Assembly (NCBI GenBank): GCA_030141605.1
Contig: JAQGDQ010000164.1
Coordinates: forward strand, 62,001 to 126,000
DNA: 64,000 nucleotides
From: Tubiluchus corallicola
Lineage: Eukaryota > Animalia > Priapulida
Reading direction: 5' to 3'
Shown here: positions 1 to 60,300 of the stretch, piece after piece
Layout of the letters: the number at the start of each line of letters is the position of its first letter
Position numbering within the stretch: position 1 is the stretch's first letter
Translations under genes and position numbers: made by a program
The notes under the pieces: model-generated
Databases searched by the model: none
Told to the model about the DNA's origin: nothing
The model's input: only the letters and a program-made list of their open reading frames with translations

Positions 1-1235
1 TAATTCCACTATCATCTACTCACGTAATTCCACTGTCATCTACTCACATAATTCCACTATCATCTATTCACATAATTCCACTATCATCTATTCACATAAT
101 TCCACTATCATCTATTCACATAATTCCACTATCATCTACTCACGTAATTCCACTATCATCTACTCACGTAATTCCACTATCATCTATTCACATAATTCCA
201 CTATCATCTATTCACATAATTCCACTATCATCTACTCACATAATTCCACTATCATCTATTCACATAATTCCACTATCATCTATTCACATAATTCCACTAT
301 CATCTATTCACATAATTCCACTATCATCTACTCACGTAATTCCACTATCATCTACTCACGTAATTCCACTATCATCTATTCACATAATTCCACTATCATC
401 TATTCACATAATTCCACTATCATCTACTCACATAATTCCACTATCATCTATTCACATAATTCCACTATCATCTATTCACATAATTCCACTATCATCTATT
501 CACATAATTCCACTATCATCTACTCACGTAATTCCACTATCATCTACTCACGTAATTCCACTATCATCTATTCACATAATTCCACTATCATCTATTCACA
601 TAATTCCACTATCATCTACTCACATAATTCCACTATCATCTATTCACATAATTCCACTATCATCTATTCACATAATTCCACTATCATCTACTCACATAAT
701 TCCACTATCATCTACTCACGTAATTCCACTATCATCTACTCACGTAATTCCACTATCATCTACTCACATAATTCCACTATCATCTACTCACATAATTCCA
801 CTATCATCTACTCACGTAATTCCACTATCATCTACTCACGTAATTCCACTATCATCTATTCACATAATTCCACTATCATCTATTCACATAATTCCACTAT
901 CATCTACTCACATAATTCCATTATCATCTACTCACATAATTCCACTATCATCTACTCACGTAATTCCACTATCATCTACTCACATAATTCCATCTACTCA
1001 CGTAATTCCACTATCATCTACTCACGTAATTCCACTATCATCTACTCACGTAATTCCACTATCATCTACTCACATAATTCCATTATCATCTACTCACATA
1101 ATTCCACTATCATCTACTCACGTAATTCCACTATCATCTACTCACACAGTTCCATCTACTCACGTAATTCCACTATCATCTACTCACGTAATTCCACTAT
1201 CATCTACTCACATAATTCCACTATCATCTACTCAC
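1..1235 (-). repeat. 24-bp minisatellite, about 51 copies visible, starting at an EEA1 splice donor
   Basis: Unit TAATTCCACTATCATCTA(C/T)TCAC(A/G); minus strand GTGA(G/A)TAGATGATAGTGGAATTA(T/C). The terminal copy's GTGAGT is the donor after exon 1405-1236. Truncated by the window edge. Confidence 0.97.
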
Positions 1236-4200
1236 CTATTTTGACTTACAAGAGTCTCTTCCTCTAGCTTTCCCTCTTTCTCTCTCATTGTTACTCTAAG
1301 TTCATCATTTACAACACACTGCTCTTTGTACTGCAGCTGCAATGTGGACAGTTCTCTTGTAAGATCGTCAATCTGGGAAACCTTCTGTTTCAATTCCATA
1401 TCACTCTAAATCCATATGTAATACTATATATGATATGATACATAAAATTACATGCATGACAATATTATTCAACTGATATTAGTAAACATGAATAATTCAA
1501 CATTTAATTAAAATAATATTATTTTTCATTATTACAACTTACACGTTTCTGATTTTTGTCTAAATATTTTCTGCTACATTACCTTTATGAAATCTACCTA
1601 TAGGAAGTGCAAATAATTGTCTAACCAGAGAAGTTACTAATAGATATCAGTTTTGGATTTACAAAATTTGGCAGGAAACCACTAGTGTGCAATCTGTAAA
1701 TCTGTAAAATTAAGGACCATTTTCAGATTTCAGATAGGTAAATAGTGATTTCCCATAGTTTATTACTAAAATATGGGATGACAATGTGCCCACTGGACAG
1801 GAAAGAAATAAAATGTGGTTTTAGACATGTGTCACCATTATTTTATTTTACTGTACTTGCTCTTAGTTCAAATTTAGAATTAGTTCAGATTCAACAATAA
1901 AATATACATAAATGAAAATGTAGAAAAAAACCCACCCACATCATGCACTGTGAGTAAATTTGTTCATCAAGACTAAATCTTTAGTGGATTATGAGGAGTA
2001 GTTTGGTTTCACTATAACAATCAAAAAGATAGTTGTGACAGTTACTGTATAAAGTACATGAGTTGTACAATGTGTGTGGATGCCTTTAGATCATTATTTA
2101 TGAAGCAAATTATTGATATTGCCTTAACACTTCCAAAAATTAACATTTACAGTTGATAAAAAATATGAGACGCTGATCAGACAGTGAAGAGGGAGAACCA
2201 TTTCAACCGCCCACAAAGTACAATTTAAATCAATTTCGGAATTAAACAAAATTTCAGCATACCTATCATCTTGGCAGCTAGGCAAATGCTGCAGTGAGCT
2301 ATTCATTAACTCTTGTAACTGATGACACATTGATATTCACACTTTGAAGAAGAGTTACTACAATTCACAGGAGACCTACAGCAAATTTGAAAGCGAAGCA
2401 CTGGAATGTTTAAGAAATCTGATTTACCTTAGTCAGACTATGCTGAAGTTCAGTAAGCTGCTGATCTTTCTTGTATGCTTCTGCCTGTGCTGAATCACGA
2501 GTGTGAGACAAATCATTCCTCAATGCTGCTTCTGCGTTCTTGGCATCACTCAACTTTTCCTCAAGCTACAAGCACAAATACTTTTAGGATCACACAAATC
2601 AGTAACAGAAATATATAATTATATACAAAAATTTGGTAAAAAAGTCAATATTTGTTCATCGTACATTTATATATATATATATATATATTTATACATTGCA
2701 TTTTCAAATACTTTTGACCTAACAAGAATCATATGTATCATTAACAGCCATACAAGTGTGATATAATATTATCATATAACAAGTACTGGATTTACAATGT
2801 AAAAATGTGTGTTGTCAATAAAGCAATGCTAAATTTTACTGGACTACATTAGAGCACAGCATTGTGTATATTACAGCATTCAGTATCGTGACACTCAAGA
2901 GGCCATAAAAATAACTACATGAAACATTTAACATGATCTTAACCAAAAGCAGAATGTCCAAATTAAACAATAGCTACTGATAGTACAAACGTCCAAATTA
3001 AACAATAGCTACTGATAGTACAAACGTCCAAATTAAACAATAGCTACTGATAGTACAAACGTCCAAATTAATACAATAGCCCATACTGATCCAGTACAAA
3101 CGTCCAAATTAAACGAATAGCTACTGATAGTACACAACGGTACCCAAATTAAACACATCAGCTACTGACCTATGTACATCAGCTTGTAGATTACCAACAT
3201 CCCCTTCGAGCCTCATACATTTGATTGCACTTTCGCTATGCTGCTTTTCCTCTGTCATCAATTTTTCTTGCACGACCGAGAATTCAGATTTTAATTTGTC
3301 CAGTTCCAAATCTTTCTCATTAAGGGCACTGCTGACTTTGACTGCTGCATCAGAATGACTCTGTAACTGACCTTTTAAAAGTTCAAGGTCATCTTGAGTT
3401 GGACGAGAAGATAATTGAGTGAGTAAATCTTGACACTGTACCTCTGATCTATATAAAATATCATACACAATAGTTTAGTAAATGAACTGTCTTATATCTA
3501 CACATAAAACACACAACAATTTCCAGGTTAATCCACAAACCATCAACAACTTTTACACCAACAGATTGGGAAATAGTCACAACCACCCACAGATTATCAA
3601 CTACTTTTACACCAACAGATTTTTAAACAGTCACAACCACCCACAGACTATCAACTACTTTTACACCAACAGATTGGGAAATAGTCACAACCACCCACAG
3701 ACTATCAACCACTTTTATACCAGCAGATTGGGAAACAGTCACAATCATCCACAGACTATTAACTACTTTTACACCAGCAGATTGGGAAACAGTCACAACC
3801 ACCCACAGACCATCAACTACTTTTACACCAGCAGATTGGGAAACAGTCACAACCACCCACAGACTATCAACTACTTTTACACCAGTAGATTGGGAAACAG
3901 TCACAATCATAGTTTCTGAGCATCCTGCTTCAAAGAAACATTTTTTCAAAATGACATCATATAAGTGTGTCTTGAATTATTCTGTGCAGCACAAAAAAAA
4001 TTATTTTAACTCTTATAACCAGGTATTCAGTCCTGATTAATTTGGTTTAGTCCAGAACAATTAAGTTTGTACAGATAAATATCAATAAAACCTGTTATGC
4101 AGACTAACTAATATCTGGTCTTACACACAACACACTAACAATTAACTTACTCAGTCAATTTCTCCTGAGTTTCTCTAATGCGAGCGTAAAGATTTGTGCT

Positions 4201-7200: not shown

Positions 7201-9999
7201 CAAATAACAAATCATACATGCACCAATATTAAACAAATACCAGAGTAACAATATAGTTGGTTTTTAATGCTTAAATAGAAGACGAATTAGATAGCAATTG
7301 ACTAAAAAAAGCTAAAAAATTATTTTACCATCTGTGCAAAGGTATAACTATGGCATCTACGACGCTTCATACCTTCATAGCTGGAGTTGTCAAATTTGTA
7401 TTACTATGCAAACTATCCACGTGTAAAGTGAGATCATCAGCTGAATGTAACATCATCTTGCATATTGGACAAATAAACCCTTCATTAGGGATATTGTGTA
7501 TCAGCTCATAGTGTTCTTGTAATGCTTCTGGTGAAGGCAAGGCAGACATGCAAGTCGGACAAAGAAACCCCTAAACAAATATAAAAAATAACAATAATTC
7601 TAACAGAAATTCCTATTTTAAATAAATAAAAACTGGCCAATAATTCAACTACACATTGGCTACTGTAAGTGGAGTATCTCGATGTAGTTGCACATCATGA
7701 TTATTGTCAATGTACTTTAAATTTTGTGAATGTTTTGTAGCACATGGGCACCCATGCCAGAAAGGGATCCCTCAGAATTTGGAGGCTTTCTACATTCTAG
7801 AACTGAAATGCTCATTAAATGCTTTACTAATTATTTTAACAACATTTAATTGTGCAAATCCACAGGTTGTGTGCCTAAGCAGTTTCTAAGTTTAACATTT
7901 GTGTTAACAAGTTTGTACATTTGTGTTACTGATAAAAATCACTTGATGCTCCTACACTGGCATGCACTGTACCAATTACAATTACACGATCTCATTTTAA
8001 TCATTCACTGAAAATGTCATATTTATGAAAAAATGCGTTTGGCACATTAAACTTCTTATATTATTTTCTGTACTATTAATAAGTGTTATACTTAATTCCA
8101 AAAAAATTAATTTATATTTGAGACAACGATATTTCTACAATTTACAAAACATGTAAACAAGTTACAATGATAGCCCAATTCTACTATTTCTAGCCCAATT
8201 CTACTATTTCTTTCTCAATCAATAAATTTACTAAATCAGTCTAAAAGAAAGCATTACCTCAACGTCCGTACCCTGAATGCCTGCGCCTCCACCTGAAGAT
8301 GAGGAAATTGTCTGTACTGGGGAGCTGGGCCCATCTTTCTCCTAAAAATTATACATTAGCTGTCTAACAAAAACACCTAAACTACTGGGTGACACTGTTC
8401 ATGAAATCATAACTTCAAAATTAACAAAATAAATGCAAAAATTGAAAACAAAAATTTAGAGTTCATATAAATCAGTTTATTAATGGTCACTAATGGTAAC
8501 ATAATGGTATCATAATATATAGTAAATTTAACTGCTACTTTTACAATTAGAACTATAATGCCTCCATGAACATATATATGCGATATCATAGTATATTAAT
8601 CTTAGACTTAATGACCTGCAAGTAAACAATCCAACAGTTATTACAACATATATGCAATAATGAATGACTATTGGCATACTGATCGAAATTCATTTTTCTC
8701 TCACTCATAGAACTTTGAGGTCATAAGAACTGTTTGTCTCGTCTGTTGGGACCACAGAAGAGCATTTCTTTGCTAATAGAGTTGTTCCTCATTGTAACAA
8801 GTTTGATGATAATGTTGTTAAGGTCAGACTAACGAACTTGTTAAAAGCAGCGTACTGAGATACGTGAATCACCTGCAATAGTGCTAGCACACCTAAACTG
8901 TTTGAAGGTAAATAACTTCTCCCTACCCTTTCTCTGCCTCTACACTACTAATACAAGAGCTTCCTCAAATGTATAATTGTTGTATTCATCCCCATGTTAC
9001 ATTTGAGAGGAGATTAAATAACCTATGTCCCAAAATCTTCCATTTTTCCAGATTCTGTAGTTAATTTGGATTACCGTGCTGAACTTACACACATGGTCTT
9101 ATGAGGACTAATTTTGCCTGATCCAATTTAAGCTTTATTTCAATGAAGGTTATAAAACCAAGCAAATCACCAATAAGCGGGTATTTAAAGTATATGTACT
9201 CAAGTGCTGCATATACTTTTCCAAAATGTGCAGAACACACGATCAACTTTGCAGATTGACTGACGACAACTTTCTATAATCTTTCATGATAATTTTGGCT
9301 TCTTAAAGCATGACTATCGTGAAGCCCTCAATCTCTCCTTAAAAAGGCTTAAACTTGGTGCACTAACCACTGTTTCTGGCAAACTATTCCACTTGTTTAC
9401 TACACAGTGTGAAAAAACGAACTTTTACAAGTAGTTCTTACATAAGGTTTATAATAATAATAATAATATTTTTATTTATCTTGGAACACATGCACAGTTA
9501 TAATACAATTAATTTGGGAACAAAAATGTGAAGAAAAGGCAGCGAAATACAGTTTCTTAGAATGCCCGCGAGTGGACAGCAGAGGTGCAGCCTGAAATAG
9601 TGTATCGCAAGTAATGCGGTCGCTCCATTTATGTACTTGAATACCTCATACAGGTCAGCTGTTTCTCTTCTCTGTTAGAGTGAACAAATCTCAGGACGCA
9701 AATCAGCATAACATAACATAATCGCAGGCACCTATCCTAAACTTTGTGCAATCTCTTGATGTCGAATTATAATGATGGTGACCATACTACACTAGAATAT
9801 TTAAATAATGGTCTACTAATTTCTGAAATCTGGCAAATCATTGGCGAAGAGTAGGAATAAAACGGGACCGGTATAGATCCTTGCGGAACTATACTATATT
9901 TAAACTTAAGTCCACTGAATAGCATACTAATAGAGACGGTAGATAATGTCATCATACCCGTTCGGTAGTTTTCAGTAAATTTTTTACTCCTTTAAACAT
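1236..9999 (-). CDS. EEA1: Early endosome antigen 1-like, 5' part (spliced; continues left of the window). Exons 9999-9958, 8341-8258, 7570-7373, 6503-6309, 5730-5609, 4291-4151, 3448-3170, 2565-2428, 1405-1236
   Basis: GT-AG exons give MFKGVKNLLKTTER...VEGFLCPTCMSALPSPEALQEHYELIH (EEA1-type N-terminal C2H2 finger), then long coiled coil including LQQRPGSEEVVSLRQE, resembling EEA1 LQRPGIEDV. Phases agree at all junctions except 3170/2565. The FYVE domain is not in the window. Confidence 0.85.
2956..3169 (-). repeat. 35-bp minisatellite, about 6 copies, abutting an EEA1 splice donor
   Basis: Unit GTCCAAATTAAACAATAGCTACTGATAGTACAAAC; copies at 3061-3169 carry many small insertions. Confidence 0.9.
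3533..3910. repeat. 54-bp minisatellite, about 7 copies, EEA1 intron
   Basis: Unit CCACAGACTATCAACTACTTTTACACCAGCAGATTGGGAAACAGTCACAACCAC. Confidence 0.95.
9330..9930 (-). mobile_element. Decayed CR1/L2-type LINE fragments in EEA1 intron 1
   Basis: Minus strand VVNKWNSLPETVVSAPSLSLFKERL (typical CR1 ORF2 C-terminus, about 9330-9405) and VPQGS RT motif near 9880; frames are broken. Confidence 0.7.
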
Positions 10000-10517
10000 C
10001 TTCAACAATGATTTTACACGTGAAAATAGAGAGATATCAAAGAGATGCGCCCATATGCGCCGCTGTCCGCTAGGTGGGTGTCAATTTGCCAGACACAACT
10101 AATCACGATCAAAAAACTTTTTAAATTTTCAACAAAATGCTGCAACTCAGCCGTAACATTTTTAACTAACTAGTTAATTTTCCATTGCCTTATGTATATG
10201 CTTATTTTTGAAATAAAAATTTACTGTTAGAACTCACAGTTTTAATATTAGTTTTGTAAAATGTGTTATCACGTTGTACGCCTGGTGTCCTTGCTGCGGG
10301 TACTGTTACTACTGTATGCCGTGAAAACAATCACACGTAAGTATTTTAGAGAACGGTCTCTATTTTAGAGAAAAAGTTTGGCTTTTTTGCATGACACAGT
10401 ATAACTTGAAATTTTATTGTTAACTTATTATTATTTTTTAGAATCAGTGGTTAGAAACAGATCCAATCCAGTGTAGATTACGCACTGTCTGTACAGCTAG
10501 CCACGGTCTAGGAAGAA
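10000..10517. promoter_or_regulatory. Probable bidirectional promoter between EEA1 and DLD
   Basis: Divergent ATGs only about 520 bp apart; local CpG enrichment (10045-10080, 10270-10340); probable DLD 5'UTR intron 10337-10441 (GTAAGT...TTTTAG). Confidence 0.7.
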
Positions 10518-23008
<12,491 letters not shown>

Positions 23009-23334
23009 GTGCATCCTGTACATATAGACTGAAACGCATGTAGCTCCTTGTCATCTGTACATAATGAACATTTTATTTAATGCTTAAATGTGCTGTGCAG
23101 AGATGCTGGAGTCCGCAGGTTGGTGGAGCTGCAGACCCCACAGTGGTTGCTGGACCTGATTGAATCGCGGATCTAACATATTTCTCAATCATTATTTTAT
23201 GTGCCCAAGTTTAAAACTGGAGTCTGACAGTGTAATAATAGCTTTTTTCTAATATTCAAGTCAAAAATGTTCCCTAGTCTGTCGCACACTAGTAACCCAC
23301 TCGTACCTTCATGCCCAAGCCGGTTAGCAATCCC

Positions 23335-24228
23335 TCACAGTCTCACAAGTCGCCGACAGTCTCACTAGTCGCTCAGTCTCACAAGCCACTCACTCTCTCA
23401 CTACTCGTTCACAGTCTCACTAGTCGCTCACACTCTCACAACTCGCCGACAGTCTCACTAATCGCTCAGTCTCACAAGCCACTCACTCTCTCACTACTCG
23501 TTCACAGACTCACTAGTCGCTCACAGTCTCACAAGTCGCTCAAGGTCTCACAAGCCACTCACTGTCTCACTACTCGTTCACAGACTCACTAGTCGCTCAC
23601 AATCTCACAAGTCGCCGACAGTCTCACTAGTCGCTCAGTCTCACAAGCCACTCACTCTCTCACTGCTCGTTCACAGACTCACTAGTCGCTCACAGTCTCA
23701 CAAGTCGCTGACAGTCTCAATAGTCGCTCAAAGTCTCACAAGCCACTCACTGTCTCACTACTCGTTCACAGACTCACTAGTCGCCCACAGTCTCACAAGT
23801 CGCCGACAGTCTCACTAGTCGCTCAGTCTCACAAGCCACTCACTCTCTCACTACTCATTCACAGACTCACTAGTCGCTCACAGTCTCACAAGTCGCTGAC
23901 AGTCTCACTAGTCGCTCAAAGTCTCAAGCCACTCACTGTCTCACTACTCGTTCACAGACTCACTAGTCGCTCACAGTCTCACAAGTCGCTGACAGTCTCA
24001 CTAGTCGCTCAAAGTCTCACAAGCCACTCACTGTCTCACTACTCGTTCACAGACTCACTAGTCGCTCACAGTCTCACAAGTCCCTCAGAGTCCCACTAGT
24101 CGCTCACAGTCTCACGTGTCACTCACAGTCTTACTAGTCACTCAGTCTCACAAGTTGCTCAGTCTCACAAGCCACTCACAGTCTCACAAGTCACTCACAG
24201 TTTTGCAAGTCACTCACAATCTCACAAG
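23335..24228. repeat. About 19-bp monomer satellite with about 5-mer higher-order structure, downstream of the DLD stop
   Basis: Monomer CAGTCTCAC(A/T)AGTCGCTCA; variant CTCGTTCACAG recurs every about 76-95 bp. Confidence 0.92.
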
Positions 24229-26205: not shown

Positions 26206-26698
26206 CAAGGGCCACAAGTATTAAGAGCTGAAACAAGGGCCACAAGTATTAAGAGCTGAAACACGGGCCACAAATATCAAGAGCTGAAACACGGGGCCAC
26301 AAGTATTAAGAGCGGAAACACGGGCCACAAGTATTAAGAGCTGAAACAAGGGCCACAAGTATTAAGAGCTGAAGCAAGGGCCACAAGTATTAAGAGCTGA
26401 AACAAGGGCCACAAGTATTAAGAGCTGAAACAAGGGCCACAAGTATTAAGAGCTGAAACAAGGGCCACAAGTATTAAGAGCTGAAACAAGGGCCACAAGT
26501 ATTAAGAGCTGAAACAAGGGCCACAAATATTAAGAGCTGAAACAAGGGCCACAAGTATTAAGAGCTGAAACAAGGGCCACAAGTATTAAGAGCTGAAACA
26601 CGGGCCACAAGTATTAAGAGCTGAAACAAGGGCCACAAGTATTAAGAGCTGAAACAAGGGCCACAAATATTAAGAGCTGAAACAAGGGCCACAAGTAT
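26206..26698. repeat. 28-bp minisatellite, about 18 copies, downstream of the BTB gene stop
   Basis: Unit CAAGGGCCACAAGTATTAAGAGCTGAAA. Confidence 0.96.
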
Positions 26699-26994
26699 TC
26701 CAAGTGCATCATTTTAAATTGTGTGATTCACAAAACGTACTAAGCGACTAAAATTCTGAAAACAAATAACAAGCCAAAATAAATAACGTGTTATAAATCT
26801 AAATAAAAAAGACTGTTATTATAAAAAACAAGATACATGTAAATCATACTAAACATTTTGAATCGTTTATATTTAAAATATAGTAAATGTGGAAATACTG
26901 ACTTGTTAGAACAAGTTTCATAACACTAGTTACCCAGCCAAACAGCCACTCCAAGAATCAGATAATCACAGACCCTGCAAGTTTCCAATAACTT

Positions 26995-28293
26995 CTAACT
27001 TCTAGGACGAGTCTTCAGATTAAGTCTGATCTTGCAGGCACCTTCAGTAACAAAACCAGATCTCACATCTAAAAGTGTGGAGTGCTGTACGATACCAAAC
27101 TCACTCCACCACACTGAATCTCTGTAACGTACCTTCCTAATAGTCTTATTCGGATCACAATTCACCAATTCCATCCAGCTATTACTGCAGATCCACACTG
27201 GACTAGCACCGGAATAGACATGAACAGTGACACAGCAGCCACTACATTCGTAATAACCAGTATTGCTACAGCGCACCGATCCACCTCCACAACGACACAA
27301 CCCTACTTTCCACTCAACATTCATGAGATCTGGACAGATCCACTCTATCATCCCAGGAGACAGCTTCTCCATGATACCAACCGGAACAGTAAACGTTGCA
27401 ACTTCTTCATTGGCTGAATTTTTCATTTGGAGATCTTCAGACAACTTGATTGTGCGTTCTTTCATAGGAAACAAACAGGGTGTTTTGTCGTAAGTGTTAA
27501 GACGATGTGAGATGATATTTCTCGTCTCTGTGTCACTCAGTAGTTCTACTGGGCAGTCAGCAAACTCTTCAGCATTCATTAAAGTGAATCTCACTTCATA
27601 CAATATGTCACCCAAAACCAGCCTCTTATTAGCAGCAGTTGGCTCTAACCTCTTTCTCATGCATTCTTCTTCTGCCCAACATAAAATCTTTTCAAACAGT
27701 TTACTTTCCTGGATATGCAGTTCATCACGTTTTACAATCACTAATAGTTTCTCATGCGATAAAGACAAAAACCCTTGAGAAGACATCACAGCTTCAGTGG
27801 ACGTGTCAATAAGCGACAAACACTTTTTCTCTATTTCCGGTTTCTCGTAAAAGGAACAGGCTTCAATAATACTGCACACATTTTCTACAGTCATGTTACA
27901 CTCCAGAAAAGCTATTGCCAAATTCTCAAGCCCATGAATTCTGTATTTTCTTGCAATGTACAAAGTGGCAAGAACGGTTTCACCAGTTACTTTGGCCTTG
28001 TCAGTATATATATACTGCACCAACAGTTGAAAGACTTCAGGTTCCACATCAGGTATTTTAATGATTTCATCTGGCTTATGTCGTAGTGGTCCCGTAAACA
28101 TGGCATTAAAAATGTCACTCCTACTACCAAGTACAAATCGAGTTGCTCGGATGAGTGTAGACTTTTGTCCCACACAGAATGTCACATCACAATAGTATTG
28201 ATTGTTGTACATGAACTCAAATCTTTTGTTCCAATTTTCCAACATGTCCAATATTTCTGCCGTCGTTTGCGGCAAATTCACGCATGTTGCCAT
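26995..28293 (-). CDS. BTB/POZ-BACK protein (BTBD1/2/3/6-like N-terminal part) with probable MATH/TRAF-like C-terminal domain, 432 aa, uninterrupted CDS
   Basis: CDVTFCVG...RFVLGSRSDIFNAMFTG...IPDVEPEVFQLLVQYIYTD (BTB); ESKLFEKILCWAEEEC...LGDILYEVRFTLMNAEEF (BACK). A splice acceptor (CTAG|GTCATG) lies 3 nt upstream of the ATG, implying a 5'UTR intron. Confidence 0.93.
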   Translation of the reverse strand: MATCVNLPQTTAEILDMLENWNKRFEFMYNNQYYCDVTFCVGQKSTLIRATRFVLGSRSDIFNAMFTGPLRHKPDEIIKIPDVEPEVFQLLVQYIYTDKAKVTGETVLATLYIARKYRIHGLENLAIAFLECNMTVENVCSIIEACSFYEKPEIEKKCLSLIDTSTEAVMSSQGFLSLSHEKLLVIVKRDELHIQESKLFEKILCWAEEECMRKRLEPTAANKRLVLGDILYEVRFTLMNAEEFADCPVELLSDTETRNIISHRLNTYDKTPCLFPMKERTIKLSEDLQMKNSANEEVATFTVPVGIMEKLSPGMIEWICPDLMNVEWKVGLCRCGGGSVRCSNTGYYECSGCCVTVHVYSGASPVWICSNSWMELVNCDPNKTIRKVRYRDSVWWSEFGIVQHSTLLDVRSGFVTEGACKIRLNLKTRPRS

Positions 28294-29349
28294 GACCTAG
28301 ATACAAGAAATATTTTATAAAAAGCTAAACATTTCAGTTTATTGATAACTATTAAATATTCTTAAAAATGAACTGCAGAAATTTAATTTTGCTAAGCACA
28401 GCCTATAACACGAGACACAGCAGCTATCCACTTACGACATAGTCAACTTCTAGCTGCTGTGCTACAGAAGGTTTTTCTTTAATCGAGGCAGCAATCTAAT
28501 AATAATTACTACAACAAAAAAATTAACTACAGCAATTGTAATTTGTAATTTATTATCCACTTCGCATATTTTACATTAAAATTTGCATTATCACATTATA
28601 ACTATTATGCATTAAAAATCAAATATAGTTACAGTAATTGTAACAAAATTATATTGATATGCGATTAGATAATATAGTTAAAAAAATGCAAATATAATTA
28701 CAATAATTGTAAAAGAACTATATTAATATAGTTACTGAACTACATAATAGTTTATCAACCAGAAATATATGCTGCATGGTGGTCAAGTTGTAAAGCTTGT
28801 GACATCACCATGAAAAGTGGAAAAAAATGCTTCTTAGCTACAAGAATTATAGAAAAACAGAGAATAGTAAAGATAAAGTAATAAAATAAGATAGAAAAAA
28901 GAAAGGAAATGCGATAGGAAAGAGTTCAGCAAAGACGTGATGCAAAAGTGTGAAAATATGAATAGTAAAGTAACCAGTCGCGAGATGTACTATGAACTTC
29001 GCACTTCACGGCAAAATCCAACAAATGCATTATGAGGATTTGAGTAGAGGAGATTTCAACTATCTTTTAAAGCCATACGATTTTCAATGTGTTATAATTT
29101 TGTTCCATAAACTTGGAGTGGTAAATTTTACAAAGCATTTACCAACATTGGTCCCGCAAAATGGAATATTACACTCATTAAAGCTGGTGAAGCGATATTG
29201 AGGAATACATACGATAGGACTTATGAAACATGGGGGTAATAAACTGTGGTGTGTCTTGTACAGATAGATAGCAATGTGGTAAGAAATTAAACCATGTAAA
29301 TTTAAAATTCCACAGTTATAAAAAAGTATAGGTTCAATTGTGATTTGTT

Positions 29350-35910: not shown

Positions 35911-36019
35911 AATTTGTTCACGTTTTTTCTGTTTTCTGGTTCTCAAGTTCGATATCTACAAGTTTACAGGTTTAATTAATTGTGAGTTTATAAAATTGTT
36001 TACCGAACTATTTAGGTGT

Positions 36020-44400: not shown

Positions 44401-47400
44401 ACTTTATGTTCTAAGTTGCTGTATTAACTTTGATGCTCGTAAACTCATAAAGAATGCTGGCTGATTACTGTTGATGAATCAGTGACATAACAGCAACTGC
44501 TAACTGATTAAACATTTTGTGAAAAGCACCAAGCATTTCAAAAGAAAACCGCTAGGCACGTGATTAAAAGTTTAGCTTTTGTAAATTCTTGGGCAACAAG
44601 GTTAGTCACAACAGACGAGGCGGTGACAGATTGAAACAAAAACTCTATGCAGGCTTATTAGCAGGTGATTAACAATCATGCTTAAAAGCCGGACATGATT
44701 AGACATGACTCCTACCTATATTATAGCGCACAGAAGGGAAGTAAAGAGGACATAAAAGTAACAAAAGCTCTCTTATCACACCCAAATGTGTTGTTTTAAG
44801 TACACCAGGTAAAAAATATTGTGTCACTTATGTGGAATTATTTGAATCAATTGCTGACATTTTTTTGCACAGTAGTGACCCATAACATATGCTTTTGAGT
44901 CTAATAAACGGCACCAACTGTATAATATTAGCATGATTTTTAATGGTTATATTTTTTTATTGTTGAGTAAAAATAGTTTTTCTTTAAGACTAGGCACTAC
45001 TGACACTGATTACCTGCTTGTGTTTTTTTTATTTACTGTATCGACTTTTCATTTATTTACAGTGCTGTTGTCATAATAGTTCATCTGTGTTCTGAATTAT
45101 AAGCTGTCTTATTTTCTTTATTCTATTTCATTGTATATGTTGGGACATGCAAGTAACGATGATAATGTTTTTAGATTGAGTTCATTAAGTCCGTGAATAT
45201 CACCTTAGTTCTAGCTGTGAAGATTCTTTTAATTGTTAAATATATGTATTTAAACCCACATGCTTGGTTGAAACATTAGCAGCACACATCCGACATTGTC
45301 AGTCATTTGGTGTCGACCACTAAGATACAAAGCAAACACCATTGCATAAAGTTCCTTGTTATTCTTTGCCATCAACACAATTTAAACCCGATAGGTGTAA
45401 CTTTATATAACAAACTTAAATTTCTTGCCCTATAACTAAACAAGTACTGGTGACTGTTTTACAGCATAAAATTATGAAGCATGAATATCATTTATGGAAG
45501 TTTTTATGCGATAAATTCTTCAATATACGATCAATGTATTTTCATTGTTTTACATGCTTTTCATAGTTAATTTCGTTTCAAACAACATAAGCAGTGTAAG
45601 TGTTGTAATTACATTTACATGCATCAGTTGGAAGCTTTTTCACATTAACAGCATGTTTAATAAATCACTGCTTCTCTAGTGTTGTCCATAGCAGCACTTC
45701 TAACTTGCGACTAAAGCTTTTTTAGTTTGCCCTGTGTGGCATTTAAACCATTTATTTGCTTGTTTAGGTTGATCCTGGTAGTACTGTAGTTACGCTTCCC
45801 GATGGAACACAAGCGCAAGTACAAGCTGTAAGTTTTAACTTTTTTCATTTGCTAACTAGGCAACAGTTTACAATCAAAAACTACATTGTTAGTGGAATCT
45901 TACGGTTATTTTTTTATAAATTGCAGTTGTTTACCTTTGTTTTTACATATCTTTTAGTTCCATTTTATGATAAAAGCATGAGATTTGGTCATGTGAAAAC
46001 TTAATCAGTTTCTCAATGGATTTTGTTTTTCAATGTGATAATTAGATAAAAAAATTTAGTACCCTATAGTACAACTGAAAATCTGAAATGACTGCCGAAT
46101 AACTTGGTTAATATACTATGGAGAAAAATAGCAGTATCTGCTTTGATATTGAGAAAAACTGCAGCTGACCTGTAAACCAGACTTAAAGATCGAAGGTACT
46201 GCCATTAGTCACTGCTTTTGGTGTTTACAATTTCACCACGTTGTGACCCACTATTTACAACTTGAGCAAGAGCACTTGTTGCATATTGTGAAAAACTGAC
46301 TCTGAACTTCTCTACCAATATAATCATGTTATCAGAAAATGTTTTTTCTGGAAAAAGAAATGTATTGAAATAATAATATGTTTCTGGTTGTGTAACCTTT
46401 GCCTTAACACAGCCAAAATTTGCCAATTCTTACTATGACAACATATGTTGTCAAAATGTAGGCAAGTATATTAAGTGAGTTTGCTAAATCGTAGAGTGCT
46501 GTAATCAAGCCAGCAATCAACATGTAGTTTTAGTAATTCATAAACATAATAAAACCTATGCTTTATTAATATATCTTCGTTGCTTTAGAAATTAGAATAT
46601 TCCTTACTTAAAAAGTAGTCATGATCATTGCTGCTGAATTTTTTTATTTTGCAATAGGAATTGGTAGTTATGTTTTTTCCAATTAGTTACAATGACGTGA
46701 ATTAGGAAGTTAAATGTTTCAGAATCTTGGTCAGTATGTTATTTACCATAATAAGATTTATTTAAATTGCACAAATCAGCACATAACATAGGCTGAAAAT
46801 GTTGAAATAACAAACTAAATTAACACGATAAGAATTACTACTGACAGGATGCTCCTCAGATAAACCCATGCGGTTTGTTGAAGAACCAGCCTGTTTAGAT
46901 ATTGATGTGATTTGCTCGGGACTTATCTGTGAAAAGTGTTCATTTTATGTTTGGAATAATATTTATTTAGATCCAGGGAACACATTCTGAAGCCACTCAT
47001 GCTGTACAGACGCTGGCTGATGTTGCCGCGGCAACGCAGCAAGACACTGCCATGGGGGTGGCCGTCGACTTGAGTGGAGAGCATGGTGTTACTATAAACG
47101 AAAGTGGCCAATTGATTCTGTCGGGAGAACATTTGCACCATGATGCTCAGACAGGTAGTTTAACATTTGCACCATGATGCTCAGACAGGTAGTTTAACAT
47201 TTGCACCATGATGCTCAGACAGGTAGTTTAACATTTGCACCATGGTGCTCAGACAGGTAGTTTAACATTTGCACCATGATGCTCAGACAGGCAGTTTAAC
47301 ATTTGCACCATGATGCTCAGACAGGTAGTTTAACATTTGCACCATGATGCTCAGACAGGTAGTTTAACATTTGCACCATGATGCTCAGACAGGTAGTTTA

Positions 47401-50400
47401 ACATTTGCACCACGATGCTCAGACAGGTAGTTTAACATTTGCACCATCATGCTCAGACAGGTAGTTTAACATTTGCACCATGATGCTCAGACAGGTAGTT
47501 TAAAATTTGCACCATGATGCTGAGACAGGTAGTTTAACATTTTCACCACGATGCTCAGACAGGTAGTTTAACATTTGCACCACGATGCTCAGACAGGTAG
47601 TTTACCATTTGCACCACGATGCTCAGACAGGTAGTTTACCATTTGTCAACGAAATAACTCTCTTCATAAGAAAAATAAGTTCGTCAGTTATACGCTGAAT
47701 CATTTGACACCTTTTTTCACCTAACAACGTACATTTCACTTTAACGATGATTTTTTTTTCACTTTCAAGGCAATTTTTTATTTTATCAACAACTTTTTTA
47801 CCTAATTTGATACATTACATATTGCATTATTCTGTTCTAAAAATGCACTAGTAAATAGTGAACAGTGCAATTGTTATTTACGTTTTACTTCCCGACAAAA
47901 TACTAAGTACTAGCCATTTATATCAAGTGAAAACTTTTGCCAGCAACCTGTTGCTGCAGCCACGAGACTAAGAATACAGATAAAATTCCTAAGGTTGCCC
48001 ACTGCTTGTTCTTGACCCTGCAGTGTTTATTGTTTAACTGCTGCCTAGGCTTAAGTATTAGCGAAAGAGAAACCGCTATAGCTAGGTAATGGTAAGTAAG
48101 ATATATAGTTGAGATATATATATATGAAATTAGTCAGTAGAAATATGCATAAACTGTTTAAATTATATGATTTAACCAGTACTGCTTTCTATGGAAGTCT
48201 TGGCTTCATTTGACTACATTTCGCTTAATGTCGTGTTTTGCTGGAATGCAGTGGCATTGTCATTCGAAGACTTGCTGTATATAAAATTCACATTAATCTT
48301 TAGCAGGATCATATTCTTTTATTAACAGTAAATTAATGACAATTCTAAGCGTAAAATGGCTAAAAGCAGATTTTCTACAATATTTTCTACAATTTTTCTA
48401 CTCTTTTATTCATTTCTTTTTTATTCATTTATTATTCATTTTCTTCTTTTTCTTGCTCGGACATTTCTACTTAAAAGATTGTAATGGTTTAATTATTTAA
48501 TTGTGTTAGTTTTCCTATTAGTGTTATATTTTGGTTATCACATTACAGGTAGTCGTTGACTTACGACCTCGAACGGTTCTGACTGACTGGCTGTAAGACG
48601 AACTAGACGTAAGTCAGACAGACGAACTGGACATAAGTCAGGCAGACAAACTGGACAAACGTCAGACAGACAAACTGGGCATAAGTCAGACAGACGAACT
48701 GGACAAACGTCAGACAGACAAACTGGGCATAAGTCAGGCAGACAAACTGGACAAACGTCAGACAGACAAACTGGGCATAAGTCAGACAGACGAACTGGAC
48801 AAAAGTCAGACAGACGAACTGGGCATAAGTCAGACAGATGAACTGGACATAAGTCGGACAGATGAACTGGACAAACGTCAGACAGACAAACTGGACATAA
48901 GTCAGACAGACAAACTGGGCATAAGTCAGACAGACAAACTGGACATAAGTCAGACAGACGAACTGGACAAAAGTCAGACAGACGAACTGGACATAAGTCA
49001 GACAGACAAACTGGACAAAAGTCAGACAGACGAACTGGGCATAAGTCAGACAGACGAACTGGACAAAAGTCAGACAGACGAACTGGACAAACGTCAGACA
49101 GACAAACTGGACAAAAGTCAGACAGACGAACTGGGCATAAGTCAGGCAGACAAACTGGACATAAGTCAGACAGACAAACTGGACAAAAGTCAGACAGACG
49201 AACTGGGCATAAGTCAGACAGACGAACTGGACATAAGTCAGACAGACGAACTGGACAAAAGTCAGACAGACGAACTGGGCAAAAGTCAGACAGACGAACT
49301 GGGCATAAGTCAGACAGACGAACTGGACATAAGTCAGACAGACGAACTGGACATAAGTCGGACAGATGAACTGGACATAAGTCAGACAGACAAACTGGAC
49401 AAAAGTCAGACAGACGAACTGGGCATAAGTCAGACAGACGAACTGGACATAAGTCAGACAGACGAACTGGACAAAAGTCAGACAGACGAACTGGGCAAAA
49501 GTCAGACACACGAACTGGACATAAGTCAGACACACGAAATGGACATAAGTCAGACAGACGAACTGGACATAAGTCAGACAGACGAACTGGGCATAAGTCA
49601 GACAGACGAACTGGACATAAGTCAGACAGACGAACTGGACATAAGTCAGACAGACGAACTGGACAAAAGTCAGACAGACGAACTGGACAAAAGTCAGACA
49701 GACGAACTGGGCATAAGTCAGGCAGACGAACTGGACATAAGTCAGACAGACGAACTGGGCATAAGTCAGACAGACGAACTGGACATAAGTCAGACAGACG
49801 AACTGGACATAAGTCAGACAGACAAACTGGACAAAAGTCAGACACACGAACTGGACAAAAGTCAGACAGACGAACTGGGCATAAGTCAGGCAGACGAACT
49901 GGACAAAAGTCAGACAGACGAACTGGGCATAAGTCAGGCAGACGAACTGGACATAAGTCAGACAGACGAACTGGACATAAGTCAGACAGACGAACTGGAC
50001 ATAAGTCAGACAGACGAACTGGACATAAGTCAGACAGCCGAACTGGACATAAGTCAGACAGACGAACTGGACAAAAGTCAGACAGACGAACTGGACAAAA
50101 GTCAGACAGACGAACTGGGCATAAGTCAGGCAGACGAACTGGACAAAAGTCAGACAGATGAACTGGGCATAAGTCAGACCCATATATGCAAGTAGGTGCT
50201 CCCTATCTGTAAGACACGCACTAAATTTGGCGGCACCTACATATGATTTAATGAAACAGATAGAGATTTAAAGTTATTTGTATGAGTAATAGTAGGAAAT
50301 ATGAGTTTTGGTTACTTTTACATAATTAATTAGGTATATTAATGATTATATAATAATAAATAATATATTTATAATAAATTATATGTAAGTTATGCTTGGG

Positions 50401-51073
50401 TCGTAAAGTCAAACATTTGTAATTTGCGTAGGCCGTAAGACGACGACTACGTATATATTCAAAAGTTTCGTTGATTTTTTAATTTATTTTGTTATTTTGC
50501 ATTGTAATTTAATTACTTCATTAAGAAATTAACCCTGAAGTTTTTATTTACAGGTGTGGTAACAATACCTGTCTCTATGTACCAAACCGTCGTCACTAGT
50601 CTGAATCAGCTGGGTAGTGAACAAATGCAGGGTGTACAGGTGGTGACATCTGGGGCACAGATGGTGGGTATTTCTTTTAGAGTGGAACATTAACAAACCT
50701 AGATGTTTTGGCATTGGCATCATCCATTTTCATCATTATCTTCATCGTCTGAGCAAAATAACACATAGATGTCTAATTCACTATAAAAACTGATTGAATT
50801 CAGCTTAATAGTTTTAATATTTATATCACATATTATGCTAATTTGATAAAGTACTATATGATAAAAAAAGTCAATGATTTGCATTGTGTTTTTCAGATGA
50901 TGCCGTCAGCCGTAACCACGGCAGCCGTAACAGAGAGTGGTCAAGGTGACAGCACCATCACCAGCAATACTGTGGAAGTTATCGCCCAATCAACACCAGA
51001 ACAAGGGTCCATCGGTCCCACGTACAAGACGGAGACAAGTTCATACAAGGCAGAGAATTTCAAATCAGAATAA
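38434..51073 (+). CDS. NRF1: Nuclear respiratory factor 1 / erect wing / P3A2 transcription factor, complete. Exons 38434-38578, 39547-39661, 40300-40426, 41548-41697, 42050-42208, 42597-42737, 43634-43705, 45768-45827, 46971-47154, 50554-50663, 50897-51073
   Basis: DEVTAQLAAAGPVGVAAAAAIAGAKKRKRPHSFETNPSIRKRHQTRLIRKL; ELPPLVIDGIPTPVDKMTQAQLRAFIPMMLKYSTGRGKPGWG; WWPDDLPWANVRSDVRTEEEKQRVPWTQALRTIVKNCYKHHGREDLL; IPVSMYQTVVTSL. Phases are consistent and there is an in-frame stop upstream of ATG 38434. Confidence 0.97.
38945..39220 (-). mobile_element. tRNA-related interspersed repeat (SINE-like), copy 2
   Basis: Homologous to 12310-12575. Confidence 0.6.
47128..47645 (+). repeat. 34-bp minisatellite, about 15 copies, overlapping NRF1 exon 9 end and donor
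   Basis: Unit AACATTTGCACCATGATGCTCAGACAG|GTAGTTT; the first copy is the coding exon end (HLHHDAQT) plus the donor at 47155. Confidence 0.98.
48546..50451. mobile_element. Tc1/mariner (pogo/Tigger-like) MITE containing an expanded satellite
   Basis: Left end TA-CAGGTAGTCGTTGACTTACGACC; right end GGCCGTAAGACGACGACTACG-TA is an imperfect inverted copy; TA flanks. Confidence 0.7.
48597..50179. repeat. 24-bp minisatellite, about 66 copies, NRF1 intron 9
   Basis: Unit AAGTCAGACAGACGAACTGGACAT with recurring variants. Confidence 0.98.
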
Positions 51074-54382: not shown

Positions 54383-57300
54383 TTATGCCGCATAGCTAGA
54401 GTATCGGGATTGTGGCCGTGACCGACCATTTTGACTATGTGCATAACCATTCATGGAATGCGGTCCTCCATTCATGTGAATGTGGTTGCCTGTGCTGCCC
54501 TCTGGTAGCGCGACAGGGTAATTGGTGAAAACGGGTGTGTTTTGCACTGAAAATGCTCTGTGCCAACTCTTGGATCCAAGAGAATGAGGAACAGAGTCAC
54601 GTGTAATATCAGACCGTGCATCATGATCATAACTCTCTCGTGAATCTGAATTATACTGAGGCACAAAGCGGAACGGTATGCTGCTGCCCCATTCTGTGGT
54701 GTCTTTTGTAGAAAAATATTCTGGAATGTCCTCCTTCTTTTCTTCCTCTTTTTTCTTTCCGCAGCAGCGGGAACTTTCACATGGCCAGATACACAGAAGC
54801 AGGATGATTGTAAAAAGCAGGAGAATTCCCAAAGCTATGCAGAGTCCAAGCAGCAAATCAAACCATTTACATCGTTTTGATTCAAGAATTGGCTGAGCAT
54901 CTGGAACAATAGAAAAATCTGATATTATCATCGCTCAGCGGTTCCCCTGTATGGTGTGTTTGACTATTTGCGTTCAGGGATGGATTAACCATTAGGCTAA
55001 TAAGGCTTTAGATATGAGCCCTAAATTTTGATAACCTTCAGTGTCCTGAGACTCATGAGCAACTAAAGCAGATATTGTTATTTTCTAAGGGATAACAAAT
55101 TTATCAAAACTATTATCTTAGCCCGTTATCGTAGAAAAACGTTTTTTCTGACACTTATCTGAGGTCTTGGGGACAGTGCTGGGACAGGTTAACCTTCTCA
55201 ATCACGGTTGACTCTAAAACGGACTCATAACATGATCTGTCACTGTCATGGCTGCCTTGTACAATCCAATCTATCATTGGTTAGGGTTTGTCTTATTGTA
55301 GAGACTTTTCATTCCTACGTGTGAAAGTGTTTTGCTTAGTTCAACAACACTTGGCATCCTTACAAACAGAGACTTTTCACTCTTATTTGAACATTTTGCA
55401 CTAAAGTTTCACTTGATATGTTTGCATTGTAAAATTTCTTGCTTATTTGGTTCTCCAATGATCTAGTCGGCAAATTTAAGAGGGCCCCCAGCGATAACGG
55501 TTAGCCGATAAAAAATTAACCGGTTAACCATTTAAGTGAAACCTTAACCAGCCACAGCCATGCTTGGAGAGAAATTTATAACTCTTTAGAAAGAGGAGGA
55601 CTCCGACTACACAAAGATGTGGAACTTCGTTTGTTGTTAGCCTTAGGCCGGTAAAACCCTTAATCCAGCCCAGCTCACATTTATGAACAAATTTAGCAAT
55701 TAGAGGTAGTACAGCAGGGCCAAAGTACTTGCAATGCTAACAGAAACTCACATTTTGTTTTCATTTAAGATCACGACAGTCTTACAAAAAAATTATAAAT
55801 GTGTTGAGGAAAAACTTCCTGTCTGTTTCAATCTGTATTCAAGTGTTATCCTAGTAGCTTTCCTACGAGAGTAACCTGGATCTGTATTCAAGTGTTATCC
55901 AGTAGCTCAGCAATGAGACTAACCTGGATCTGTATTCAAGTGTTATCCAGTAGCTTAGCAATGAAATTAACCTGGATCTGTATTCAAGTGTTATCCAGTA
56001 GCTTAGCAATGAGACTAAACTGGATCTGTATTCAAGTGTTATCCAGTAGCTTAGCTATGAGACTAACCTGGATCTGTATTCAAGTGCTATCCAGTAGCTT
56101 AGGTATGAGACTAACCTGGATCTGTATTCAAGTGTTATCCAGTAGCTCAGCAATGAAACTAACCTGGATCTGTATTCAAGTGTTATCCAGTAGCTTAGCT
56201 ACGAGACTAACCTAGATCTATATTCAAGTGTTATCCAGTAGCTTAGCAATGACACTAACCTGGATCTGTATTCAAATGTTATCCAGTAGCTTAGCTACGA
56301 GACTAATCTGGATCTGTATTCAAGTATTATCCAGTAGCTTAGCTATGAGACTAACCTGGATCTGTATTCAAATGTTATCCAGTAGCTTAGCTACGAGACT
56401 AATCTGGATCTGTATTCAAGTGTTATCCAGTAGCTTAGCTACGAGACTAACCTAGATCTATATTCAAGTGTTATCCAGTAGCTTAGCAATGAAACTAACC
56501 TGGATCTGTATTCAAATGTTATCCAGTAGCTTAGCTACGAGACTAATCTGGATCTGTATTCAAGTATTATCCAGTAGCTTAGCTATGAAACTAACCTGGA
56601 TCTGTATTCAAATGTTATCCAGTAGCTTAGCTACGAGACTAATCTGGATCTGTATTCAAGTGTTATCCAGTAGCTTAGCTATGAGACTAAGCTGGATCTG
56701 TATTCAAGTGTTATCCAGTAGGTTAGCAATGAAACTAACCTGGATCTGTATTCAAGTGTTATCCAGTAGCTTAGCTACGAGACTAACCTGGATCTATATT
56801 CAAGTGTTATCCAGTAGCTTAGCAATGAAACTAACCTGGATCTGTATTCAAATGTTATCCAGTAGCTTAGCTACGAGACTAATCTGGATCTGTATTCAAG
56901 TATTATCCAGTAGCTTAGCTAGGAGACTAACCTGGATCTGTATTCAAATGTTATCCAGTAGCTTAGCTACGAGACTAATCTGGATCTGTATTCAAGTGTT
57001 ATCCAGTAGCTTAGCTACGAGACTAACCTAAATCTATATTCAAGTGTTATCCAGTAGCTTAGCAATGAAACTAACCTGGATCTGTATTCAAATGTTATCC
57101 AGTAGCTTAGCTACGAGACTAATCTGGATCTGTATTCAAGTATTATCCAGTAGCTTAGCTATGAAACTAACCTGGATCTGTATTCAAATGTTATCCAGTA
57201 GCTTAGCTACGAGACTAATCTGGATCTGTATTCAAGTATTATCCAGTAGCTTAGCTATGAGACTAACCTGGATCTGTATTCAAGTGTTATCCAGTAGCTT

Positions 57301-60300
57301 AGCTATGAGACTAACCTGGATCTGTATTCAAGTGTTATCCAGTAGCTTAGCTATGAGACTAACCTGGATCTGTATTCAAGTGTTATCCAGTAGCTTAGCT
57401 ATGAGACTAACCTGGATCTGTATTCAAGTGTTATCCAGTAGCTTAGCTACGAGACTAACCTGGATCTGTATTCAAGTGTTATCCAGTAGCTTAGCTACGA
57501 GACAAACCTGGATCTGTATTCAAGTGTTATCCAGTAGTTTAGCTGGAAGACTAACCTGGATCTGTATTCAAATGTTATCCAGTAGTTTAGCTAGAAGACT
57601 AACCTGGATCTGTATTCAAATGCTATCCTGTAACTTAGCTACTAGACTAACCTGGATCTCTATCTCCGGGTTCTAAGATGTATAAGCTTTGCGCTGTCAG
57701 TACTTCCCGTATGCTGTCTCCTGGAAGATAACTGGGAGAACCAGGATTACTACAATTGATCTGAAAATAAAAATCAATTGCTTTTATGAGTTTTATTAAA
57801 TTTTTGGGGCAATTTTTGAAGATCTGAACAATATTTAAATTTAATAATGTTTAATGGTTTACACAAAATATGGAATTGAGCTTTCTCAGGCTTATAACGA
57901 AGTCTTGCCACTTTTGGCTTACTAACACTTCAGTAAATATAAAATAGGCCTACAATATTAATGCAAATATCCATAGCGACTGAAGTGCAAAGTGTACGAT
58001 GGATCATTAAGGCTAAGATTTGAGAGAACCTCACCTGGCTAGCTGGTGCTTAAATTGCCCACTTAATGGCTTATGAATTTTTGTTTATGTACTCACCCCA
58101 GGGCACGAGCCTTGACAAATGACCACAATGCAGGTGATATGGATCCTCTGGCGATCATCAATGCGGAATGGTAAGAACGCAGCTCGGTACAGTTGTTTGT
58201 CTCCCATACGTTCAAAATCAAACTCTGTCATCAATGCGTGATCCACTGAACAACTTTAAAATACACATAAACATGTGCTTAAGTTGAATACGTTTAATAA
58301 GTATTGCAGTTTATAATTGTTTGAAATGAAAATTAATTATTTTTTACCAGAACTCTGTACATTATACAGCGTCATACATCTGTCTCTTACACTACATTAA
58401 CCAAGAGCCTGAAAAAAAGCTACATAAACTTGGATCTGACTGCAGGATAGTTGTGTGCCCAATTTGGTGCCTTGTATGGCTGTCTGTTTAAGAAATAGAT
58501 AAGAGAGGGAAATCTCTGAATTCAAGCCACCCTGGTGCCTTGCAGGGCATCTCTTTTACTAGAGAAATCTAGGTCAAGCACCAATATCAATGATTGGTGT
58601 CAGCAAGGGGATGAAAGCATCATCATACAGCCACAATGATGCCTCCAAATGACTAAAGCTAAAGACCGATTGTGATCTAGCTCCTGGCAGAAAGTGCTAC
58701 ATGCAACAAACATTAAGTGCAAAAAATGAACAGTGCTCAGTAGTGCCACACTGGAAGAGGAGGAAAATTGAGAAGATGCACAGCAGTGCCACATTGGAAG
58801 AGGAGATTTGAGAAGATGCACAGTCATGAAGTTATGACTGTTTGGAGAATGGTTGAAGACAGCAGATGTAGGCAAAGAGGATGATTATTGTTTTCTACAT
58901 GCAGAAGATAAGGAAGTTGGTTGCAAAGTTTGTGGATCAGAGGAGGTACAGTATAAGTTTTGGTGGTCAGAGGAGAGAAAAGGGACATTGAGAGTTAGGG
59001 GGATTGATGAGAAAGGAGATGGTTGAGGATGTAGTACATCTACAGTGAATAAATTCCGAAATACAATGAATGACTTGGTCAGTTAGTGTGAGGACGGGGC
59101 CAAGCAATGTGTTGGGAGAGCTGGTGAGCGTTGAAGCAGAAGGGTGTAGGCTAGTAAGCAGGCCAAAGAAGTCATGGAAGAGTTGTGCAAGATGGACTTG
59201 AAGAAAGAATGACACAGGAAGATGGAGACTGTGGCAAAAAGTCATAAGTACGTATATATTCGTTACCCTGGTTCTGCTATAAGCATAACTCGTTTATCAC
59301 TGCGATCTGCTGTTGCCTCACAAGATTTTACCCAATAATGAAAAGACTGCAAATCTGGAAAATTATATCATCTTTTAATAGAATTAGCTACTACAAATAT
59401 ATTTAATGCAAATACTTTCTTGACAATATAGACTAATGTAAACTGAATATGCATTTAGAGACACTCTGTAAGCACCTTCTACATTGCTAATGAGAAAAGT
59501 TTTATATTTTAACCTGTTCAATTTCATTTCATATCATCACCATTAAACTAGGATGCATCTGTTACATGGTCAGTCAAGTTTTTTCCACAATAGGGATAAA
59601 AATTAACCCCTCTGCAATCAGCATTATGGAAGTTGCTGTTTCCATTCTAACGCACAACTTGGGAGATGATGAGATGCGATAACTCTGCATTAAACATGAC
59701 CTTTATATTCAAAAACTTAAATTTAACCTATTTAGTAATAAGGTTTAATAAGGCTATCTTTTTATATAATTTGGAATACAGGCATCCACCATTCAATGTC
59801 AGGTCCTACTGAAATTTAATGGCTTTGGCGGGACTGGAACTTTACTCCTTATCAGGTTCTAAGATGCATCACTGAACCCATAAAGCCACGTTCAGAACGA
59901 ATCCCCGTTCAAGAAGAAAAACAGCCAGAATCAATGTTAGGAATGATCTCACCCAGAATCAATGTGAGGAATGGTCTCACCCAGAATCAATGTGAGGATT
60001 GATCTCACCCAGAATCAATGTGAGGAATGATCTCACCCAGAATCAATGTGAGGATTGATCTCACCCACAGCGAGTATTGAATTGGTTTACCCATCAGTTG
60101 ACTGAGAAGGTTTGGCATCAGCACCATTCTTAACTTTGGTCGACGAGCAAGACACTGTGACCACTCGTCCTATTATTATTTGGCAAGTCATTCAATTAAT
60201 AATATTAACTTAAACATTATTAGATTGGTTAAGTGCAGTTAACTAGTGATGCAAATAGTTACAGCATACCTCTGTGTATAGTGATTTGCGCTACATATGT

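Follow-up and report, generated by a model that had tools for sequence, protein, structure and literature searches.

Why do tandem arrays with unrelated units begin at 5' splice sites in several genes of one animal? This question is raised by a stretch of 64,000 nucleotides from the priapulid Tubiluchus corallicola (GenBank assembly GCA_030141605.1, contig JAQGDQ010000164.1, positions 62,001 to 126,000 of the forward strand), which is called the window in the following and to which all counts and statistics are confined. Within this AT-rich animal DNA, an earlier note had described five arrays with one end exactly at a donor: two in an EEA1-like gene and one each in DLD, NRF1, and a gene with a ZP domain. 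Four of these, with periods of 24, 44, 34, and 48 bp, were confirmed; the fifth, a 35-bp array near position 3170, was not.

Four arrays headed by a donor

Exons were snapped to AG/GT boundaries, which gave stop-free models for the four genes with a total of 38 donors and 37 acceptors; tandem arrays were called by Tandem Repeats Finder (TRF). Each of the four confirmed arrays contains the donor GT in its unit and extends downstream into the intron, on the reverse strand in the EEA1-like and ZP genes and on the forward strand in DLD and NRF1, which agrees with the direction of transcription stated in the earlier note. The arrays comprise 6 to at least 52 copies with 91-96% matches, and their units repeat local sequence from the end of the exon and the beginning of the intron. 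It had also been claimed that four arrays reiterate the real GT donor, three of them together with 8 to 27 exonic bases. This holds as well, the exonic share being 12 bases in DLD, 27 in NRF1, and 8 in the ZP gene.

Four sets of contigs are referred to below. X1 comprises short-read DNA contigs, X3 stems from a second sample, and X5 is a more diverged sample with a contig of low depth. X6 is a run guessed from its species label to be RNA; its contigs skip introns and are about 5% diverged from the window.

The 24-bp array of the EEA1-like gene (1..1235, reverse strand; TRF) has at least 52 copies and is cut by the window edge. It starts at intron position +1, directly after a coding exon of the open gene model (1236..1405, reverse strand) whose phase 2 donor heads the array; with the boundary at 1236|1235, the unit contains no exonic base. 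GT is kept in 51 of 51 decoys (the downstream copies of the donor), which do not carry the G at position -1, and the GC content of the array is 33%. An X1 contig (1207-2657) reaches 29 bases into the array, the low-depth X5 contig extends 20 bases into its first unit, and an X3 contig shows more units. The summed contig depth is 12,364, compared with 164 in the flanking sequence.

In DLD, the array (44 bp, 21808..22070, forward strand; TRF) consists of 6.0 copies (5.98) and lies in the last intron. The preceding penultimate exon (21730..21819, forward strand) matches Pfam family PF02852 and residues 424-453 of human DLD (1zmc), is represented in X6, and ends with an HAHP motif. Given the donor at 21819|21820, the unit combines 12 exonic with 32 intronic bases, and all five decoys keep GT. 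Two X1 contigs (21136-21918 and 22021-22481) enter the array from both flanks and break inside it. A spliced X6 contig joins 20347, 21340-21477, 21729-21819, and 22943-23006, the last of these being the last coding exon of the gene model (22943..23008, forward strand). Because this contig joins 21819 to 22943, the boundary in DLD is the first donor, at which the sequence of this relative is spliced.

The arrays of NRF1 and of the ZP gene were called by TRF on the assembly. In NRF1, 15.2 copies of a 34-bp unit occupy positions 47128..47645 of the forward strand. The exon at their head (46971..47154, forward strand), which was located by tblastn and the gene model, has its final 27 bases inside the repeat unit; these are followed, across the donor 47154|47155, by 7 intronic bases, and GT is kept in 13 of 14 decoys. 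The array terminates in an 8-base partial copy, 7 bases of which agree with the array start. The next exon (50554..50663, forward strand), likewise supported by tblastn and the gene model, is in phase 1 and encodes VVTIPVSMYQ. In the ZP gene, 38.2 copies of a 48-bp unit (55831..57663, reverse strand) lie in the last intron, headed by the donor of the penultimate exon in the open gene model (57652..57760, reverse strand). Here, with the boundary at 57652|57651, the unit includes 8 exact exonic bases (11 of 12 overall), 27 of 37 decoys keep GT, and the terminal partial copy again agrees with the array start at 7 of 8 bases. The last exon (54383..54900, reverse strand) encodes a hydrophobic segment and a tail and is in frame with the first donor, according to the gene model.

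The array near position 3170

The 35-bp array lies on the reverse strand in intron 7 of the EEA1-like gene (2956..3168; TRF, 5.7 copies). Its clean part (2956..3060) consists of three identical copies and is represented by X1 and X3 contigs on 2700-2985 and 2962-3024. Towards the exon follow three insertion-rich "copies" (3061..3168), which likely are a consensus mosaic. The donor at 3170 is in phase 2 and the next exon (2565) begins in phase 0, so that the two are out of phase; the frame of the EEA1-like model is open only if a weak donor at 3166 is taken. One X1 contig, whose depth is that of single-copy sequence, follows the window over 3168-3571 except for one difference and diverges from it beyond. 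This contig wholly accounts for the depth of the bin 3114-3221, and nothing else aligned to 3114-3167. In a manual comparison of its 28 loose letters, 19 agree with the window ungapped, and at the other 9 the window has repeat-unit letters. Moreover, the loose letters keep the coiled-coil frame and encode LEGEVEKL, an echo of LEGDVGNL 14 residues earlier. The consensus at 3061-3168 is likely garbled, a mosaic in which the true end of the exon is mixed with the repeat unit. The 35-bp array itself is real and lies at most about 110 bp from the true donor. On account of the phase clash and the departure of the X1 contig at 3168, it is not counted among the confirmed donor-anchored cases and is excluded from the counts below unless stated.

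One may ask whether the entire pattern is an artefact of assembly. In favour of this, one of the five claimed cases likely stems from a faulty consensus next to an array, which is also a warning for practice, and the NRF1 and ZP arrays are known from the assembly alone. Against this stand the short-read contigs entering the DLD array from both sides, the occurrence of the EEA1-like 24-bp array in two samples (X1 and X3), and the patterned order in which unit variants recur within the long arrays. Short-read contigs thus support the DLD and the EEA1-like 24-bp arrays but not the window sequence at 3061-3168, which is likely garbled. We regard an artefact as a highly improbable explanation of the pattern as a whole.

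Frequency of arrays at donors

For the statistics, arrays with a period of at least 19 bp and at least three copies were counted. The window contains 13 of these, 11 of them intronic, and 10 remain after dropping the 35-bp array. In the null model, each array was reduced to a single unit, for which a random position was drawn. With uniform placement, 0.43 donor-spanning arrays were expected, whereas 4 of 10 were observed (p = 5.8e-4); including the 35-bp array, 5 of 11 would give p = 5e-5. The statement that five of about 12 minisatellites sit at donors therefore loses its fifth case but keeps its substance, a local excess. Part of this excess may be compositional: the mean GC content is 40% for the 13 arrays, 32% for introns, and 38% for donor-spanning windows. 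A GC weight, which is a rough estimate from 8 unanchored arrays, approximately doubles the expectation to 0.83 (p = 0.006), and a threefold weight gives p = 0.023. If two arrays located within interspersed elements are left out, the count is 4 of 8 (p = 2e-4 uniform, 0.003 weighted). Note that all these p values overstate the case by an unquantified amount, because the window was chosen by eye for the pattern from a very large scan.

In agreement with the earlier note, no array spans any of the 37 acceptors; in the window models the nearest one is 84 bp away, and the acceptor of the intron containing 1-1235 lies beyond the window. The comparison of donors (4 of 38) with acceptors (0 of 37) gives p = 0.06 and is not significant. 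Furthermore, arrays on the acceptor side are known from the "mirage" minisatellites of the lancelet, one being carried by the globin gene BflGb6 (PMC3087553; this and the other papers with PMC numbers are cited from their accessible parts). The proposed specificity for donors is therefore not upheld. When the other donors and all acceptors were scanned sensitively for small duplications, none scored above 9.

These numbers bear on the idea that new arrays arise with preference at 5' splice sites, where pausing, U1/R-loop exposure, or nascent-RNA-templated repair might act, each of these steps being conjectural. Such a coupling would account for 4 of 10 arrays at donors instead of 0.43, for a duplication score of at least 20, which is reached at 4 of 38 donors but at none of the 37 acceptors and at none of 669 intron sites drawn at random outside the arrays, and for the one array that starts exactly at +1. 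In addition, a donor-like 9-mer on the sense strand was found in the unanchored arrays 17654-17968 (p 0.04) and 21044-21172 (0.03), two of nine tested against shuffles, the values being uncorrected. On the other hand, the evidence stems from a single hand-picked window, the contrast between donors and acceptors reaches the above p = 0.06, and mirages such as that of BflGb6 occur at acceptors. Unit starts are spread from -27 to +1 and have no fixed register, and the remaining 33 donors that could be assessed show no partial or two-copy duplications, their best score being 8 (9 at the garbled site 3166). Donor-coupled birth thus appears rather unlikely to us. The broader proposal is that about one donor in ten heads an array seeded by a transcription- or splicing-coupled process, and that mirages are the trace of a hotspot for mutation at splice sites which many marine animals share; this we consider unlikely. 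If true, a donor bias of several fold would tie mutation of the DNA to the recognition of splice sites, and the hotspot would be measurable in any long-read genome. A genome rich in such arrays would make a bias between donors and acceptors cheap to test.

One further candidate was examined at a donor. The 28-bp array 59925-60067 had been considered as a sixth case near a donor and was rejected, as the stop-free ZP model skips the putative exon, so that the array lies inside the intron, 202 bp from its start. This exon-like stretch of 79 bp (60091-60169, reverse strand) has AG and GT ends and lies in ZP intron 4, 23 bp before the array. It may be a pseudo-exon or a poison exon; its inclusion would shift the frame.

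Probable slippage and tolerance

In our opinion, the arrays are probably ordinary slippage duplications over real donors, tolerated since the first donor is still used; among the readings offered by the earlier note, selective tolerance is accordingly the likeliest. A short local stretch holding the donor would have been duplicated by slippage between short direct repeats. Such a duplication across the donor would leave the exon and the first donor intact and push the copies into the intron, and as long as splicing keeps choosing the first donor, the extra copies would stay intronic and the array could persist. Later growth and homogenisation may have occurred via unequal exchange or conversion, and arrays lying wholly in exons would be removed by selection. 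Use of the first donor is presumed here by analogy with human F7, in which splicing takes place solely at the most upstream donor, although the decoys are functional once it is mutated (PMC1557585). The local excess would then result from a roughly twofold preference for GC-richer sequence, the choice of the window, and possibly a small unexplained bias.

Short direct repeats have been described as the birthplaces of minisatellites (Taylor and Breden 2000; Haber and Louis 1998; both as summarised in PMC3389668). The incomplete terminal units or short direct repeats of the NRF1, ZP, and unanchored 53-bp arrays, the last of which (17654-17968) shows terminal redundancy with a 9-base match, are the mark expected of a birth of this kind; splice sites, in contrast, are not addressed by that model. 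Because its six 53-bp copies are identical, the unanchored array is likely very young. The edge copies are the most diverged ones in DLD (0.86 and 0.86) and in the ZP array (0.875 and 0.92). Donor columns are no better conserved than others: 9 of 36 are variable, compared with 31 of 114 (p = 1.0), which is a weak test, the copies being non-independent and homogenised.

Several observations speak against slippage and tolerance as a full explanation. The donor excess stays improbable under all nulls (p = 5.8e-4, 0.006, 0.023), and the GC weight, based on 8 arrays, is only rough. Tolerance explains the survival and the direction of the arrays and does not by itself enrich donors over mid-intron positions; the excess therefore needs the GC preference, window selection, or a true bias. 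The EEA1-like array, which begins exactly at +1 and has 33% GC, is not explained by a GC preference, and its far end lies beyond the window. The DLD array (5.98 copies) has no clear terminal microhomology. Use of the first donor in DLD was seen in a relative only, as X6 is about 5% diverged and its genome may lack the array. Finally, the human genes 6-16 and CBS also use the nearest decoys (PMC1557585).

Decoy function and intron gain as improbable readings

If the arrays were kept for a function, they could act as decoy-donor or U1-loading elements that counteract premature polyadenylation, or could tune output by nonsense-mediated decay. In NRF1, 13 of 14 decoys are identical to the real donor 9-mer, and in the ZP gene 21 of 37 are; this would suit such a role, and read-through reaches a stop 4-23 nt into each of the array introns. 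Early in-frame stops are, however, ordinary: 25 of 37 introns have one within 10 codons, and a designed trap for nonsense-mediated decay was rejected for this reason. Decoy strength was evaluated with a matrix derived from the 33 other donors, whose scores range from 4.3 to 12.8. The EEA1-like decoys score 0-2.9 and thus fall below all of these, and the DLD decoys reach 1.8-4.0, compared with 5.0 for the real site. Ten of the 37 ZP decoys have lost GT by three different substitutions, and the donor columns vary like the others. In addition, the three introns with both ends in the window are short (1.1-3.4 kb), and splicing at a decoy of the last intron would deprive DLD of its final 21 residues. 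The decoy or U1-loading function suggested in the earlier note is thus not borne out and is, in our view, very unlikely.

The arrays might also be intermediate stages of intron gain, in which AG|GT is duplicated in tandem, a proposed route that the earlier note had mentioned. AG|GT does occur in the NRF1 and ZP units, and the model has been proposed for mirages (PMC3087553). In all four models, however, the first donor is spliced to an ordinary next acceptor with an open frame. The acceptors are pre-existing and lie 872-2908 bp past the arrays, and no new intron bounded by duplicated AG|GT was seen in the models. The DLD intron is likewise removed in the transcript of the relative, and each unit has an early in-frame stop on read-through. 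Intron gain can hardly be what these arrays reflect.

Relation to known boundary repeats

The earlier note knew of no description of such arrays as a genome-wide system; the arrangement, however, has precedents. Lancelet mirages are tandem repeats across exon-intron boundaries, found at both boundaries and leaving splicing undisturbed, in Adh3, troponin C, the globins BflGb6 and BflGb9, and PGBD5 (PMC3087553, PMC3902484). Their formation is called unclear (PMC3087553). The arrays of the window resemble them in that the units lie over the boundary (10-72 bp in Adh3), the splice signals are repeated, and several unrelated genes of one marine invertebrate are affected. The first units include exonic bases in DLD, NRF1, and ZP, and the diverged edge copies of DLD and ZP correspond to mirage edge copies, which escape homogenisation (PMC3087553). 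The EEA1-like array, which meets the boundary with 0 exonic bases, is comparable to the abutting repeats of PGBD5 (PMC3902484). In contrast to the lancelet, where both boundaries are concerned, all four confirmed cases are on the donor side; copy numbers reach 38 and at least 52, whereas globin and PGBD5 mirages have 2-7; and the host is a priapulid, not a chordate. Mirage-type repeats are thereby extended to a priapulid.

A second precedent is provided by human variable number tandem repeats that span donors, namely F7 IVS7 (37 bp, 5-9 copies), 6-16, CBS IVS13, LMNB2 (100 bp), and PDGF intron 4 (81 bp), with use of the first donor in F7, LMNB2, and PDGF (PMC1557585). There, too, the first monomer joins the end of the exon to the beginning of the intron, so that copies of the donor recur downstream, and unit size and copy number overlap with those found here. 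Unlike the human cases, which are scattered single genes, four occur within 64 kb of the window. First-donor choice has been proven by mutagenesis in F7 and is only suggested here. The arrays, with up to 21 identical decoys, are natural substrates for the choice of the first donor. Neither a genome-wide count of donors versus acceptors nor a priapulid repeat survey was found in the literature searched, which included few subscription papers and no supplements; the accessible parts of PMC10078293, PMC11686069, PMC8096271, and PMC2812944 contain no relevant test, the last of these stating that introns may form from repeats at exon-intron boundaries.

Genes and further repeats of the window

The EEA1-like model has 9 exons and runs past the window edge; the models of DLD, NRF1, and the ZP-domain gene have 13, 11, and 8 exons, respectively. 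The identity of DLD is backed by Pfam, human structures, and spliced contigs; X6 contigs cover DLD and do not cover the EEA1-like stretch. These two genes are arranged head to head, with start codons about 520 bp apart (9999-10518). Homologue searches with the EEA1-like gene gave no match. A HMMER search gave three matches, two of which were examined and are unrelated repetitive proteins; when all three were used in tblastn, only one aligned, and solely to the query exon. An N-terminal C2H2 finger (Pfam) and a coiled coil are consistent with the name EEA1 and with the human protein. This name is that of the earlier note and has no database match.

The assignment of NRF1 is based on tblastn with 7 of 120 listed homologues. 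For an NRF1 exon, the top identity is 96% (Priapulus caudatus), and the remaining listed matches have 75-87%, which agrees with a priapulid as the source. By eye, the C-terminal part of the public Priapulus NRF1 model (P0003) resembles other frames of the last NRF1 exons in the window, which suggests that this model is frameshifted. In the ZP gene, the matches to ZP-N and ZP-C on upstream exons score below the Pfam cut-offs.

Further repeats were noticed in and near these genes. In NRF1 intron 9 (48544-50455), a 24-bp array (48596-50179) is located between 26-nt inverted arms that are 81% complementary and have TA ends; it likely sits inside an element resembling a miniature inverted-repeat transposable element. 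A 38-bp array belongs to the interspersed repeat 20690-21172, of which 100 bp are skipped by contigs of both X1 and X3; the summed depth there is 860-1090, compared with about 160. DLD intron 9 contains an interspersed element of very high copy number (19250-19950; summed contig depth up to 27,460), and a higher-order repeat with periods of 9, 19, 93, and 188 bp (23334-24225) follows immediately past the DLD stop. The broken reading frames at 30100-31300 (reverse strand) in the translation list look like a decayed long interspersed nuclear element, judging from words that resemble endonuclease and reverse transcriptase. Positions 26998-28296 (reverse strand) hold a single-exon BTB-BACK frame of about 430 codons, with a 28-bp array downstream at 26206-26699.

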